A stretch of DNA of 64,000 nucleotides, taken from assembly GCA_964630695.1 (NCBI GenBank), contig CAZVYZ010000003.1, forward strand, positions 2,804-66,803, read 5' to 3'. Each line of letters opens with the position of its first letter. Position 1 is the stretch's first letter. Of the stretch, positions 16,473 to 20,673 are shown piece after piece. The stretch is from an uncultured Ruminococcus sp. (GTDB lineage: Bacteria > Bacillota > Clostridia > Oscillospirales > CAG-272). The notes beneath the pieces were generated by a model. That model was not told the DNA's origin. It did not search any database and was given only the letters and a program-made list of their open reading frames with translations. Position numbers and translations under genes: made by a program.

Positions 16473-16501
16473 CGTTCCTTTCCTGTTGCGATTCTGCTTC
16501 T

Positions 16502-16530
16502 ATTATACCATGTTTCGGCGCGCGGCGCAA
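16502..16530 (-). promoter_or_regulatory. Sigma-A promoter of the deoC-deoB-cdd-nnrD operon
   Basis: Minus strand reads TTGCGC - 17 nt - TATAAT with extended -10 TGG. About 30 nt upstream of the deoC ATG. Confidence 0.5.
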
Positions 16531-16543
16531 GGGGTATTTCAGA

Positions 16544-16570
16544 AAAGAGCGCGGATTTTCCGCGCTCTTT
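16544..16570 (-). terminator. Terminator of the AT-rich island operon
   Basis: Perfect 11-bp GC-rich stem aaagagcgcgg / ccgcgctcttt with a 5-nt loop. Lies 28 nt past the stop of the 267-aa gene. The minus-strand tail is TCTG after the TTT in the stem. Confidence 0.55.
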
Positions 16571-16598
16571 CGAATCATAACATCGGATATATGGCTTT

Positions 16599-17402
16599 CT
16601 AAATAACATTCACACAGCCATTTACAAGGTTTGGTGAATCCTGAATTGGCTCTAATATTTTGAAAGTAATATGGTCTGTACACAGTATCTCCTGATTATT
16701 CTTATCAAATTGCCTTAAAACGAAGGAATATGTTCCATATGCAAGTCCTTGCACAGATAGGAATAAGTCGTTGGAATTTAATTCGCATTTTTTAAACATG
16801 GTCCAACTTTCCGGCTCCTGAACCGGTCCATATGGTCCGCCAACCGTTCTGTATTTATCGGGAATGTATAAAGTTATTTCGGTTCTCTCGCATTCCTTGC
16901 AACAAAGATTGAAATAAATGTTAACCAAATTTGTCCCTGTTGCAACTTTAATGTTTGCTGCTTTTTCTAAGGCTTCTTTCTTTTGCTGTGCGACGGCAGC
17001 ATAATATTTGTCCTTATCTGCCTCGACGTATGCTATTTTTAAAATATAGTCATCGGCTAAGCCGTTAAAAAAAGAAAATTTAATCTCATTGATTCTGTCC
17101 TCAAAATCGGCAACAATGCTATACATCCCCTGAACACACGGGACTTCCGTCCATTGCCCCTCTTTTGAAATAGAGATTCCGGAAAAAATTCGACAATCAA
17201 ATTCTTTCGGATTGATAACCAATGAATATTTCGTTTTGGTAATATCATCATCCTGATTGATGCAAAAAGAATCCGTTTGCTCATTAAATTTACCGCATTT
17301 CGCTATAGCATATTCTTTGCTTCGGTCCACAGGGTCAGTGCGGCAAAAGATGAATAAATCCGTAATGTGCCTCTTCAATATATATTTTTGATATTTATCC
17401 AC
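16599..17402 (-). CDS. Orphan 267-aa protein (island gene 2), no recognisable family
   Basis: AT-rich ORF with a GTG start at 17402. The AAGGAGGG SD lies 6 nt upstream and overlaps the TAA of the upstream gene. No TM or signal peptide. Two beta-rich halves joined by the helix AAVAQQKKEALEKAANIK. Confidence 0.75.
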   Translation of the reverse strand: MDKYQKYILKRHITDLFIFCRTDPVDRSKEYAIAKCGKFNEQTDSFCINQDDDITKTKYSLVINPKEFDCRIFSGISISKEGQWTEVPCVQGMYSIVADFEDRINEIKFSFFNGLADDYILKIAYVEADKDKYYAAVAQQKKEALEKAANIKVATGTNLVNIYFNLCCKECERTEITLYIPDKYRTVGGPYGPVQEPESWTMFKKCELNSNDLFLSVQGLAYGTYSFVLRQFDKNNQEILCTDHITFKILEPIQDSPNLVNGCVNVI

Positions 17403-17414
17403 TTTATTCCCTCC

Positions 17415-19307
17415 TTATAATGAGCAAATATATTCAATACATTGCTTGATTTCTTCGTCGGACATCTGAGGTAACACTTTTTCAGAGTGAACAATCCCAT
17501 TTCTTTGCTTTCTCAAATTATTTAACATTTGGGGCGTATACGGGTCGTAATCATTTCCTTCGTCATCATACGTGTTGAATCGATTACAGAAATGATCCAA
17601 CATTTCAGAGAAATTACCGTCTAATCGATAGTCAAACTTTAAAATTGCTTCCAGCCTGACACATAGTTTTACAATAACAATATCCCGGTTGCCTTTTTCC
17701 AATTCCGAATAAAAGAAATCTTTGGTCAATTCTCCGAGAATCGCTTCTTTTTCCTCCGTGTCAGTCAATTCATTCATTATCTTTTGTCTTACATTGCGTA
17801 AATAGTCGGCAACCTCTTGCAAAGAGGTTTGACTGTATGCCGAAGCGTTGGAATCCAATCTATGCAGTTCTGCCTGATTGATATTCAGTTCTTTCTGCTT
17901 ATCCTTAGTCCATACTTCAAGTATCCTATCTTCAATTGTATCAATGTTCTGCGCAATAACGGAATTTGCCAAATCATTCGCCTTTTCATCCACCGCAAAC
18001 CGAAACAAGGATTTCCAGTCTTTTTTTGAATACCAATTATAAAGCACCTCAAAAGGATGAATCGGGTACATATACAATGCCTCTTTTATGGAGGGCAAAT
18101 CCTTTACGTTCTTTACTTCACAGATGTTGAGGATACCATTATGCAAAGCCATTTCTACTTGCAACTTGGTATTGGAAATGGTCTTATCAAGTTTCAGTTT
18201 GGCAATTCTGATTTCATCGCCACTTGCAACATAGCATTTTGAATTTTCATGAGATTGACTGCTGAATTTAGTATCAACAAATGACAATATTTCACTGTTA
18301 AATTTGTTGAACTTTTCTACTGCTTCAAAATCCCCTTTTTCCAAGGCAAATGTGATTGTGCTTTTCAAAATATGTACAATGTAGCGCTTTGTACCAAAAT
18401 TATATTTATGAGTTATCGCATAATTGCTTAAAATGTAGTTATATGTGCGATCATAATTATCGTAATATGGTTCAATCTCTTCAAAAATTTTATGGTTGTT
18501 TTTCTCCGCAGCAGTCAGCAAATAGTGAAGTAAGTTCTGATTTTGCCCTTTATAAGCCTCTTCAATCAAGTATGGAAAAGCCGCATACCAAACGCGGTCC
18601 GATTCATTTATAGGCAAGAGGAGCGAGTTGAGTGTGTCTTCGTTAATACGCTTATCATTCACAAGCATCGTGAAGAATTGTCTTGGTATTATACAAAGAA
18701 TCCTTTGAGGCGGATTATTACTATAGATAGGTTCATCTTCCTCGGGAAGGAGTTCTTTTATTTCACTTTCATTTTTGAAGGTAAAATAACACCCGCTACG
18801 AGCGGCAATTCTTCTATCTTTCGAATTTGAAATGGGGAATTGTTTGCCATTCAGTAAAAACAAGGAATTTGAGAGAACAGCAAGTGTCAACGCTTCAATG
18901 ATTTCAAATCTTGTAATAAAGCGCGAGTCGTTTTCACATAGTTTCTTAAATACCTTAATGCTTTGATACTCTACTATGTAATCCACAATGGTTTTGCCGT
19001 TTTCATCGGAGGGTAAATCTTTCACTTTCTCTGCCATTGTAACGTCGTCATTTTTCGCACATAATTCCGCATTTGAAATTACAACGATTTCTTTTTCAAC
19101 ATCCTTACCGGTTAAAAGATAATCAATAGAAACATTGAAAAGACGTGCCATAGCGGGAAACTGAGATATATCCGGAAAACTTGTTTCGTTCTCCCATTTA
19201 CTGACCGCCTTGTCTGTCACACTTAGTTTTTGTGCAAATTCAATTTGTGTCCAACCTTTCTCCTTGCGCAAACCTGCTATCGTTTTACCAATGCTGTGTT
19301 CACTCAT
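17415..19307 (-). CDS. 630-aa XRE-family HTH protein with a large helical middle region and a C-terminal HEPN-like (R-N-x3-H) domain (island gene 1)
   Basis: N-terminus GKTIAGLRKEKGWTQIEFAQKLSVTDKAVSKWENETSFPDISQFPAMARLFNVSIDYLL is a textbook HTH_3. C-terminus LNNLRKQRNGIVHSE carries Rx4H at R602-H607 (nt 17487-17504). AAAGGAG SD lies 8 nt before the ATG. Confidence 0.85.
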   Translation of the reverse strand: MSEHSIGKTIAGLRKEKGWTQIEFAQKLSVTDKAVSKWENETSFPDISQFPAMARLFNVSIDYLLTGKDVEKEIVVISNAELCAKNDDVTMAEKVKDLPSDENGKTIVDYIVEYQSIKVFKKLCENDSRFITRFEIIEALTLAVLSNSLFLLNGKQFPISNSKDRRIAARSGCYFTFKNESEIKELLPEEDEPIYSNNPPQRILCIIPRQFFTMLVNDKRINEDTLNSLLLPINESDRVWYAAFPYLIEEAYKGQNQNLLHYLLTAAEKNNHKIFEEIEPYYDNYDRTYNYILSNYAITHKYNFGTKRYIVHILKSTITFALEKGDFEAVEKFNKFNSEILSFVDTKFSSQSHENSKCYVASGDEIRIAKLKLDKTISNTKLQVEMALHNGILNICEVKNVKDLPSIKEALYMYPIHPFEVLYNWYSKKDWKSLFRFAVDEKANDLANSVIAQNIDTIEDRILEVWTKDKQKELNINQAELHRLDSNASAYSQTSLQEVADYLRNVRQKIMNELTDTEEKEAILGELTKDFFYSELEKGNRDIVIVKLCVRLEAILKFDYRLDGNFSEMLDHFCNRFNTYDDEGNDYDPYTPQMLNNLRKQRNGIVHSEKVLPQMSDEEIKQCIEYICSL

Positions 19308-19339
19308 ACAAGATTCTCCTTTATGGATTTGTTATCTCT

Positions 19340-19368
19340 ATTATAACATATTTCTCATATCTTGTCAA
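19340..19368 (-). promoter_or_regulatory. Perfect consensus sigma-A promoter of the island operon
   Basis: Minus strand reads TTGACA (19368-19363) - exactly 17 nt - TATAAT (19345-19340). Small inverted repeat GTTAT-n7-ATAAC (19331-19347) overlaps the -10. Confidence 0.65.
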
Positions 19369-19568
19369 CCTACTTATAATTTACATGTCCGTCCGGCTAT
19401 TTTGCTTATCAATTTGAAATTCTACCATCAGTAGAGTCCTTCCCGAACTTCAATTTTCATACCGCTCGGGATGAGTAAGGATTTTGCGGATTTCATATGG
19501 GTAAACGAACAGGTACAACACGCTCCCAACGGCAATGAACGTTTTTTCGCTTCAATTCCCGAAACCCA

Positions 19569-19597
19569 TTGCATTTTCCCGAAAAGAATGCTATAAT
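19569..19597 (+). promoter_or_regulatory. Sigma-A promoter for the methyltransferase-like gene
   Basis: TTGCAT - 17 nt - TATAAT with extended -10 TGC. Confidence 0.5.
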
Positions 19598-19629
19598 AAG
19601 CATAAGTCCGAATCTCGAAAGGAACCGAC

Positions 19630-20673
19630 ATGAAACTGACGCTCTCCCCCTCGGACGCACTCCGCGTTGCGCGCCTGAAAAAAATCACGGAGGAAAATGA
19701 CCGCATTCTCCGCCTGTATGCGAACTATCTCAACCTGACCCCGCGTCTGCTTGACGCACGGACGGTCCGCGACCTTGCCGCCGACTGCACAATCCCCGCC
19801 GCCGACGCATTCCGTGCGCTCTTTTCTGCATCCATTGGGCTGGATGTCCCCGATAATCCGGATGACCGCCGCTTGGAACGGGTCTATATTCAGGCAGGAG
19901 TCCGCAGTCTTTCCCCCACGCCTTACCGCAACGACGCATATGTGAAAACGGTGCGCTTCGGGGACCTGTCGGTCGGCAAATGGCGGTTTACGCACGGGGA
20001 ATACCATGCGTTCGAGCCGTTCGTCTGCGGGCATCCGGTTCTGACCTCCGATTTCCGCGAAATTCCGCAAATCGGCTTTTTTGAAGAGCGCTTTTCCTTT
20101 CCGTCCGTCACCGAAAACGGCGTGGAATGGATGACCGTCACGCCGAACGAAGCGGAAACCATGCGTGCGGTCATCGGCGAGGCGCACGGGCGGGTCCTGA
20201 CCTACGGCTTGGGACTTGGTTACTTCACATTTCACGCGTCGCAGAAGCCCGAGGTGCAGTCGGTGACGGTCATTGAGCGGGACCCCGACCTCATCGGTCT
20301 TTTCCGAAACTGCATTCTGCCGCAGTTTCCAAACCGAGACAAAATCACCGTTCTGCATGCCGACGCGTTTGAATTCACCGAGCGGGACATGAAACCCGAG
20401 GCATTCGACCTCGCTTTCGTTGACATCTGGCACGACCAGTCCGACGGTCTGCCGCTCTACCTGCGCATGAAGCGGTCGGAATCCCGTTTCCCCGCCACCG
20501 CGTTCCGCTACTGGATTGAGCCGACCCTGCTCTCTTCACTCCGCCACATGGTTACAGACCGCATCTTTGACGAAACCGCAGGCGCAGAGGTCCGCACCTA
20601 CGGAGAGATTGAAACCATGCTTGGCGACGACTATCTGCGCGCGCTTGCCCCCAAATTGCGCCGTCTTGAATGA
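19630..20673 (+). CDS. Class I SAM-dependent methyltransferase / spermidine-synthase-like protein
   Basis: Rossmann motif I VLTYGLGLGYF, then VTVIERDPD and LHADAFEF, as in the spermine/spermidine synthase fold. Function not assignable from sequence alone. Confidence 0.6.
   Translation: MKLTLSPSDALRVARLKKITEENDRILRLYANYLNLTPRLLDARTVRDLAADCTIPAADAFRALFSASIGLDVPDNPDDRRLERVYIQAGVRSLSPTPYRNDAYVKTVRFGDLSVGKWRFTHGEYHAFEPFVCGHPVLTSDFREIPQIGFFEERFSFPSVTENGVEWMTVTPNEAETMRAVIGEAHGRVLTYGLGLGYFTFHASQKPEVQSVTVIERDPDLIGLFRNCILPQFPNRDKITVLHADAFEFTERDMKPEAFDLAFVDIWHDQSDGLPLYLRMKRSESRFPATAFRYWIEPTLLSSLRHMVTDRIFDETAGAEVRTYGEIETMLGDDYLRALAPKLRRLE

Follow-up and report, generated by a model that had tools for sequence, protein, structure and literature searches.

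A predicted HEPN ribonuclease fused to an XRE-type helix-turn-helix and genetically linked to a tandem-FN3 partner in uncultured gut Clostridia and Bacilli

We analysed a 64,000-nucleotide (nt) stretch of the genome of an uncultured Ruminococcus sp. (NCBI GenBank assembly GCA_964630695.1, contig CAZVYZ010000003.1, positions 2,804 to 66,803 of the forward strand; hereafter the window), and here describe a two-gene operon on its minus strand. The first gene encodes a 630-amino-acid (aa) protein with an N-terminal XRE-type helix-turn-helix (HTH), a variable middle region and a C-terminal module (the C-module) of helical pairs followed by a predicted HEPN ribonuclease (RNase) domain, while the second encodes a 267-aa protein with two FN3-like domains, which we refer to as the partner. 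The longer open reading frame (ORF) had been picked out in a preliminary description made from the sequence alone and is real, with an ATG start preceded at 8 nt by a GGAG ribosome-binding site (RBS) and a promoter that is the best-scoring in the region (12/12 consensus match). The partner gene begins at a GTG 12 nt past the stop codon of the 630-aa gene, in the arrangement GGAGG-N7-GTG. Folding of the RNA showed that the operon is closed by a hairpin of -22.1 kcal/mol (z = -4.3; 0 of 200 shuffled sequences equally stable), which a consensus terminator scan does not list because its T-run is short, and an Rfam scan of the locus gave zero matches. The operon occupies a ~3 kb islet with 36% GC in a genome of ~57% GC; in 200-nt windows the islet measures ~33-42% GC and its flanks 55-64%. 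These flanks hold housekeeping genes, with deoC to one side and, to the other, CNNM genes and a methyltransferase-like ORF that is transcribed divergently. The coordinates of all features are collected in Table 1.

Table 1. Features of the two-gene operon and its islet, with positions in the window
Feature	Position	Strand	Basis
Low-GC islet holding the two-gene operon	16543..19600	-	composition profile and 200-nt GC windows
Coding sequence of the 630-aa protein (XRE HTH, variable middle region, helical module, predicted HEPN)	17415..19307	-	ORF list, ATG start
XRE/Cro-C1-type HTH, residues 7-70	19098..19289	-	Pfam HTH_19 and HTH_3
Middle region, residues 71-375	18183..19097	-	DSSP of model, architecture classes
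N-terminal half of C-module, helical pairs, residues 376-491	17835..18182	-	kept in all architectures
Predicted HEPN domain, RiboL-PSP-HEPN-like, residues 492-630	17418..17834	-	PF18735 matches, helix order
Codon of E553, acidic residue of Ex3[K/R] on the second core helix	17649..17651	-	alignment
Predicted catalytic Rx4H motif, R602-N603-G-I-V-H607	17487..17504	-	codons AGA AAT GGG ATT GTT CAC
Partner RBS GGAGG, directly after the TAA stop of the 630-aa gene	17410..17414	-	sequence read
Coding sequence of the 267-aa partner, GTG start, tandem FN3/Ig-like	16599..17402	-	ORF list, alignment, AlphaFold, Foldseek
Intrinsic-terminator-like hairpin closing the operon, 13-bp GC-rich stem ending UUUUC	16543..16571	-	RNA fold
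Sigma-70-type promoter TTGACA-17 nt-TATAAT with TG extended -10	19340..19368	-	12/12 consensus match
GTAGGTTGAC, window copy of family element GTAGGTTTAC, overlapping the -35 box	19364..19373	-	left half and spacer of putative operator
Inverted repeat ATATGTTAT-N7-ATAACAAAT spanning the -10 box	19327..19351	-	9-nt arms, 89% complementary

The preliminary description had called the end of the 630-aa protein a HEPN RNase domain from a short motif in a helical context, and both the codons it gave for the motif and the helical nature of this end (by DSSP of our structural model) proved correct. R602..H607 is the sole Rx4-6H in the protein; as RNxxxH also arises in 3.2% of shuffled copies of the protein, which contain on average 0.42 Rx4H each, the bare motif is weak evidence. 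With homologues taken into account, the alignment places RNxxxH far beyond chance. Among 84 homologues, reaching down to ~26% identity, the sole invariant columns are L548, E553, L598, R602, N603 and H607, so that the proposed check of R602 and H607 conservation returned 84/84 for both, and a K or R at position 557 (74/84) forms Ex3[K/R] with E553 (84/84). Likewise, 136 of 150 cluster representatives carry RNxxxH, and the other 14 are mostly fragments missing the C-terminus, together with three with a degenerate motif.

Profile comparison showed that PF18735 (HEPN_RiboL-PSP; curated gathering cut-off 28.4 bits) fits the C-terminal ~120 residues best and most consistently. This profile was matched independently by 46 of the 84 members (E <= 0.01, best 1e-5), compared with five for DUF4145 and one for HEPN_STY4199, and the family consensus of the last 139 residues scored above the cut-off (30.8 bits, E = 3.5e-7), followed by HEPN_Apea and DUF4145. 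An AlphaFold2 model built from the family alignment, with a mean predicted local distance difference test (pLDDT) score of 91.4 and a predicted template modelling (TM) score of 0.80, places E553 within a helix at 541-558, followed by an insert with a helix at 566-574 and a loop, a helix at 590-607 that ends in RNGIVH, a further loop and a helix at 617-629. In the published definition of HEPN domains, Rx4-6H ends helix 3 and has a polar residue (N/D/H) after the R, helix 2 carries an acidic residue, often as Ex3[K/R], and an insert lies between helices 2 and 3 (PMC3710099); the motif, the polar residue, the helix-2 Ex3[K/R] and the predicted helix order with insert are all found here. The C-terminal domain is therefore very likely a HEPN domain, best treated on present profile scores as a sister group or divergent subfamily of RiboL-PSP-HEPN, and it is likely to be catalytically competent. 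The N-terminal half of the C-module carries the motifs HNGILNI, YPIH..E.L and LF.FAVD, which are kept even in stand-alone 250-aa forms of the family, and searches of this half against the PDB gave non-significant matches only.

The partner has 120 cluster-level homologues and no Pfam domain was found in it. Its AlphaFold model (pLDDT 91.1) consists of two beta-sandwiches joined by a long helix, and Foldseek matched it to tandem FN3 proteins in the PDB at E ~1e-5 and to phage tail FN3 domains in BFVD, which we regard as generic fold matches. The N-terminal MDKYQ is near-invariant in the alignment, inspection of the N-terminus revealed no signal peptide, and the partner is predicted to be cytoplasmic. 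We searched 55 loci from species-representative genomes with a hidden Markov model (HMM) of the partner. Three of them end at a contig edge; among the remaining 52, the partner gene immediately follows the HEPN-module gene in 46. In the converse test, the most divergent partners were preceded by an HTH/HEPN-module gene. Two adjacent, strictly linked genes with operon anatomy, as used to define type II toxin-antitoxin (TA) systems, are thus present.

The family occurs in three architectures, of ~600-650 aa (HTH, middle region and C-module), ~350 aa (HTH and C-module) and ~250 aa (C-module alone), and the linkage to the partner holds for the 350-aa and 250-aa variants. The two shorter forms therefore define a conserved core of about residues 376-630, and since the partner stays linked even where HTH and middle region are both gone, we place the presumed contact with the partner on the C-module. 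Comparison of the architectures indicates that the C-terminal ~250 aa and the partner form the core of the system, with the HTH and middle region as accessory parts. Separately, three partner homologues (P0334, P0337 and P0378, e.g. L065:59-1012) contain an insert close to the N-terminus that matches the C-terminal domain (CTD) of RNA polymerase alpha, PF03118, which may point to a connection with DNA or with the transcription machinery.

The HTH_3 domain claimed for the N-terminus was recovered by Pfam as HTH_19 (E = 8.9e-12) and HTH_3 (E = 2.9e-11), both above cut-off. The modelled domain superposes on the HTH domains of P22 c2, 434, SinR and ImmR (target TM 0.8-0.9, root-mean-square deviation (rmsd) ~1.2 Å), and is found, strongly conserved, in 69 of the 84 aligned family members. 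An RRNPP regulator, combining HTH and TPR, was considered and rejected: ComR, PrgX and PlcR matched at TM ~0.2 with an rmsd of 15-21 Å, so only the HTH is common to these proteins. The ~450 residues between the HTH and the C-terminal end had been described as an unknown helical region with an ankyrin-like flavour. For the ~300 residues that make up the middle region Pfam scans gave no family match, in agreement with that description, but in DSSP of the model the region as a whole is mixed alpha/beta rather than a simple helical or ankyrin array, with one ankyrin-like segment of repeat length (~95-125) near its start. In PDB searches with the family consensus of regions other than the C-terminus, nothing was significant save for a weak alignment of residues ~95-125 to designed ankyrin repeats (E = 0.005). 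Ank_3 gives a weak match in one of the 84 members, and no tandem array was detected. The middle region is missing from the ~350-aa and ~250-aa natural variants. Two loci have, upstream of the full gene, an additional ORF that the main-protein profile recognises (L018:5968-6180, ~70 aa; L047:1977-2888, ~300 aa), and at the former the match spans ~2.8 kb instead of 1.9 kb; these ORFs may reflect duplication or insertion.

Upstream regions of the homologues share the pattern A-n-AAGTA-GGTT-TAC-n-TTTT (consensus form AAAAGTAGGTTTACTTTT), even between proteins of 30-40% identity. This element overlaps a TTTACA -35 box, with TGnTAnAAT 17 nt later, and in most lineages the arms flanking GGTT are complementary at 5-7 of 7 positions. 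Allowing up to one mismatch, GTAGGTTTAC has 65 matches in 1.28 Mb of sequence counted on both strands, of which 42 lie on the strand of the gene and just upstream of it; nearly all of these are exact, compared with ~1.2 exact matches expected by chance. It is missing from loci whose C-module gene lacks the HTH, and the 64-kb window contains only one other near-match, with one mismatch and 5 kb away. A dyad conserved at the -35 box in about 40 loci, together with a strongly conserved HTH, points to autoregulation by an HTH dimer that would bind this element. The inverted repeat spanning the -10 box is also present in the 95%-identical locus (L005) and is a possible lineage-specific operator. 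The preliminary description had proposed a self-repressing sensor-effector, and while the dyad over the -35 box favours self-repression, the protein does not stand alone; the FN3 partner, the operon with its low-GC islet, the family-wide promoter element and the natural variants that do without the HTH and middle region had been overlooked.

Further observations concern the element and the promoters. Extra exact copies of GTAGGTTTAC occur away from the main promoter, at the junction of partner and third gene in one locus (L013:8608, minus strand) and ~3 kb downstream in another (L046:10906, plus strand). A second inverted repeat, TCTAC-N7-GTAGA, lies ~8 nt 5' of GTAGGTTTAC in seven loci (L001, L010, L012, L026, L044, L050 and L060) and may be an auxiliary operator; it is not in the window. 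A reading of AGGTTT...GAAT as a sigma-H-type promoter was rejected because the spacing, 17 nt with an extended -10, fits sigma-A and not sigma-H.

Such features would also suit an ordinary XRE transcription factor, in which the HEPN fold serves for sensing or oligomerisation without catalysis, as in MtlR, and the FN3 protein is either a co-regulator or the product under control. Regulators of that kind with a HEPN fold, such as MtlR, exist (PMC3710099), and the strong, highly conserved HTH with its promoter-overlapping dyad, the acidic C-module, the housekeeping neighbourhoods and the hint of a transcription link in the three partners with an alpha-CTD-like insert are in its favour. However, non-catalytic HEPN families lose the Rx4-6H motif (PMC3710099), whereas here the R, N, H and helix-2 E are invariant in 84 homologues. 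Moreover, natural variants without the HTH keep the HEPN module and the partner, indicating that DNA binding is not the core function, and no regulon beyond the operon is visible in the window. We consider this explanation quite unlikely.

A word-indexed search returned 592 homologues of the 630-aa protein, one of them 95% identical and a large group at ~58% identity, and an exhaustive HMMER scan with residues 70-630 gave 258 clusters at 50% identity. The family comes nearly entirely from uncultured gut Clostridia and Bacilli; the surveyed loci are mostly from uncultured gut Clostridia (Christensenellaceae, Oscillospiraceae, Ca. Scatosoma and Ca. Coproplasma) with some Bacilli, and across both classes the distribution is patchy. 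Flanking genes vary by species and are mostly housekeeping. The foreign GC content, the patchy and varying insertion sites, and the variable accessory domains and third genes argue for an accessory, mobile module, and the foreign composition of the islet and its patchy distribution indicate that the cassette was acquired horizontally. No relatives were found in sequenced phages or plasmids (tblastn of the C-module) or in IMG/VR contigs (scan), which leaves a prophage or plasmid origin unsupported. To look for an empty site, we sought exact matches to the flanking DeoC protein, taking either of two alternative starts, and obtained no record.

The same evidence bears on whether the protein could be a dedicated enzyme for the processing or turnover of a specific cellular RNA, with the FN3 protein as a specificity or localisation subunit. 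Housekeeping HEPN enzymes exist, for example Las1, Swt1 and the Ire1 KEN domain (PMC3710099), the acidic surface suggests that the substrate is specific and not general, and the genes are chromosomal and set among housekeeping genes. Against this stand the foreign composition (36% versus 57% GC) and the patchy, species-varying insertion sites, the variation of accessory domains and third genes, and the lack of a conserved RNA gene or Rfam family nearby, and we judge this role very improbable.

The explanation to which we give somewhat better than even credence is that the operon encodes a HEPN RNase effector that represses its own expression and is under the control of an obligate FN3 partner, in a cassette of TA-like or abortive-infection-like type. 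Gene 1 would be an XRE repressor of the homodimer type fused, through the variable region and the helical module, to an intact HEPN domain with the fold of a metal-independent endoribonuclease and E553, R602, N603 and H607 as its predicted active-site residues; gene 2 would supply the cytoplasmic tandem-FN3 protein as obligatory partner of the C-terminal helical and HEPN module. In such a mechanism, the HTH would keep expression low by binding, at its own strong promoter, the dyad that overlaps the -35 box, as the conservation of both HTH and DNA element leads us to infer. The HEPN domain would be a latent RNase, restrained or gated by the FN3 partner acting on the C-module, which is suggested by the strict linkage that persists without the HTH and middle region. 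RNA cleavage and growth arrest would then follow once the partner is lost or displaced, or once the partner or the variable middle region senses a trigger.

Several observations weigh against this reading. The 630-aa protein itself matches PF18735 below the cut-off (19.8 bits, E = 8e-4, residues 524-630). A Foldseek search of the PDB with the full-length model was dominated by the HTH, with no HEPN chain among the best 50; the preliminary description had asked for such a search of separate segments, and the run on the whole model gave HTH and low-TM RRNPP matches that are uninformative on the C-terminus. The best PDB match of the C-terminal profile, ApeA, aligns RN-IVH on the HEPN motif at a non-significant E = 0.98. 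With a pI of 4.7 the HEPN module is acidic, an unusual property in a protein that binds RNA non-specifically, and in the lineage of the window the right arm of the dyad is degenerate, with 2 of 7 positions complementary. The partner is missing in six of the 52 evaluable loci, a pattern that fits poorly with its being a strict antitoxin unless the copies concerned are inactive. The family is also absent from PADLOC: with v2.0, neither the C-module nor the partner matched any model, and matches of the full protein (RmrA, CapH and others) cover approximately the HTH region only, with one RmrA model reaching residue 181. Among 132 flanking genes, most of them housekeeping, there was no consistent defence-island enrichment, and the defence matches were scattered and each confined to a single locus (PDC-S01, PDC-S72, PDC-S27, PD-T4-2_B, LmuA and DUF4238). 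With no PADLOC match, no phage, plasmid or IMG/VR copies and housekeeping neighbours, a defence role is unsupported by context.

An addiction-type TA cassette, stabilising itself or the surrounding DNA and having no part in phage defence, would use the same components, with HEPN as toxin, FN3 as antitoxin and autoregulation through an HTH borne on the toxin. The compact two-gene operon, the translational-coupling-like spacing and the strong RBS on the second gene are what such a cassette would show. Its toxin-first order is that of RnlA-RnlB, the toxin gene standing first in both RnlAB and LsoAB, while autoregulation is implied by the conserved dyad and the low-GC, patchy islet sits among housekeeping genes with no defence-island context. 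On the other side, addiction modules often sit on plasmids or phages, where no copies were found, the partner, at 267 aa and with a pLDDT of 91, is large and well folded, unlike typical labile antitoxins, and six loci do without it. As this alternative differs from the self-repressed effector in biological role only, sequence cannot separate the two; we regard a pure addiction role as unlikely. A more far-reaching form of the effector model would have one polypeptide act as both DNA-bound autorepressor and latent HEPN RNase, with the FN3 subunit docked on a helical, ankyrin-like adaptor beside the HEPN domain to sense the trigger or to inhibit, phage infection or partner loss turning the repressor into an active RNase, so that derepression and effector activation would be coupled within one molecule, and variants that add HEPN-like or DEDDh nucleases, together making up a new immune or conflict family of gut Firmicutes. 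We put this forward tentatively, as a possibility that we find rather doubtful.

We compared the pair with known systems that combine some of its parts. Like RiboL-PSP-HEPN (PF18735), the C-terminal domain has a conserved RNxxxH and a helix-2 acidic residue and is predicted to be a metal-independent RNase. The founding members of that group are fused to endoRNase L-PSP and lie in operons with ParB (Anantharaman et al. 2013, PMC3710099), whereas the protein described here has an XRE HTH, a ~300-aa middle region, a helical module and an FN3 partner instead of L-PSP. Pfam detected no L-PSP domain in the 630-aa protein, and the list of the 25 Pfam families found most often in the 132 flanking genes does not include ParB. 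RnlA-RnlB, LsoA-LsoB and the HEPN-MNT system HepT-MntA (HEPN-MNT is cited in PMC10440598) are likewise two-gene cassettes in which a HEPN RNase is checked by a co-encoded protein. In contrast to RnlAB and HepT-MntA, a tandem FN3 beta-sandwich stands here in the place of RnlB or a nucleotidyltransferase, an HTH is part of the effector itself, and neutralisation is only presumed.

Csx1, a type III CRISPR ancillary RNase of CARF-HTH-HEPN organisation whose active form is a dimer or higher oligomer (PMC9704534), resembles the 630-aa protein in holding an HTH and a HEPN RNase domain in a single polypeptide. The HTH of Csx1 is an internal linker, whereas that of the 630-aa protein is N-terminal, of Cro/C1 type and accompanied by a conserved DNA element; furthermore, no CARF match was found, and cas genes do not recur among the neighbours. 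The single-gene anti-phage protein ApeA (PDB 9hxm) is similar in length (~600 aa) and in its C-terminal HEPN with RNxIVH, it is the top, though non-significant, PDB sequence match on the motif, and there is a weak HEPN_Apea Pfam match. The similarity is confined to the motif region, however; ApeA has neither HTH nor FN3 partner, and the PADLOC ApeA models were not matched.

HTH matches were also obtained to RmrA, HigA, PezA, HipB and MqsA, with which the family shares the logic of XRE-HTH autoregulation of a conflict operon (PMC10440598). In those systems the HTH is on the antitoxin, in RmrA with an ImmA protease, whereas here it is on the predicted nuclease. RmrA is the HTH-ImmA antitoxin of RosmerTA (PMC10440598), and assignment of the locus to RosmerTA was rejected, since the PADLOC alignment covers approximately the HTH only and Pfam found no peptidase family. 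The preliminary description had held that a DNA-binding HTH covalently linked to a putative RNase was not a described defence family, which is too broad because Csx1 is a known CARF-HTH-HEPN protein and a survey of HEPN domains lists a DUF4145-type HEPN fused to a sigma-HTH (PMC3710099); what stands is that this particular architecture is absent from PADLOC. As far as the literature, PADLOC and the source annotations extend, the last giving 'hypothetical protein' only for both the main protein and the partner, we did not find described a family predicted to join an XRE HTH to HEPN through a variable region and a helical adaptor and to have, in addition, both a conserved operator and an obligate tandem-FN3 partner.

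Cas13, Csm6/Csx1, several Abi systems and toxins of HEPN-MNT and RnlA type all act through HEPN RNases, and new modes of controlling them are of mechanistic and biotechnological interest. The present family would add a HEPN effector that carries its own operator-binding HTH and an all-beta FN3 protein as obligate HEPN regulator, a pairing that we did not find described. The clean, conserved promoter-operator makes autoregulation directly testable, and the model proposes a function for two 'hypothetical proteins' that are widespread as a pair in gut metagenomes of humans and animals. Should the RNase prove inactive, the family would be a case of an XRE regulator using a HEPN fold as sensor.

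An 18-nt direct repeat with 16/18 identical positions brackets the low-GC islet as TCTATTATACCATGTTTC and TCTATTATAACATATTTC, at 16499-16516 and 19337-19354. One of them forms the extended -10 region that precedes deoC, its counterpart the -10 region of the islet promoter, and the repeat could be a chance promoter similarity or the trace of an insertion event. The divergent ORF adjoining the islet (347 aa, 19630-20673, plus strand) has weak matches to Methyltransf_25 (E = 0.04) and RrnaAD (E = 0.05); it has the normal GC content of the host and therefore probably lies outside the islet. In two Bacilli metagenome-assembled genomes a conserved gene of ~322 aa stands directly before an HTH-less 255-aa C-module gene (L053:4996-5958 and L059:5026-5994). 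It had no Pfam match, and the idea that it is a split-off middle region was rejected on an hhalign probability of 1.4%.

Third genes were seen directly after the FN3 partner in other loci. One type encodes a 158-186-aa protein with an invariant E...R-x4-H, and occurs at L013:8634-9182, L001:10718-11263, L011:3012-3485 and at least seven other loci; it is not in the window. Aligned with the HEPN family it reached an hhalign probability of 29%, in the motif region only, and its consensus has sub-threshold HEPN_Swt1 and DUF4145 matches, so that it could be a second small HEPN, weakly supported. The alternative third gene is a DEDDh 3'-5' exonuclease (L048:8560-9351, L049:1974-3191, L021:8778-9347 and L027:3680-4255). 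Of these, the L048 and L049 proteins match Pfam RNase_T (lowest E 5e-11), L049 being in addition recognised by the PADLOC model for CRISPR-associated DEDDh, while the labels of L021, which had no Pfam or PADLOC match, and L027 rest on sequence clustering with L048 and L049. The presence of these genes suggests that nucleases may be added to the HEPN-FN3 pair in a modular fashion.

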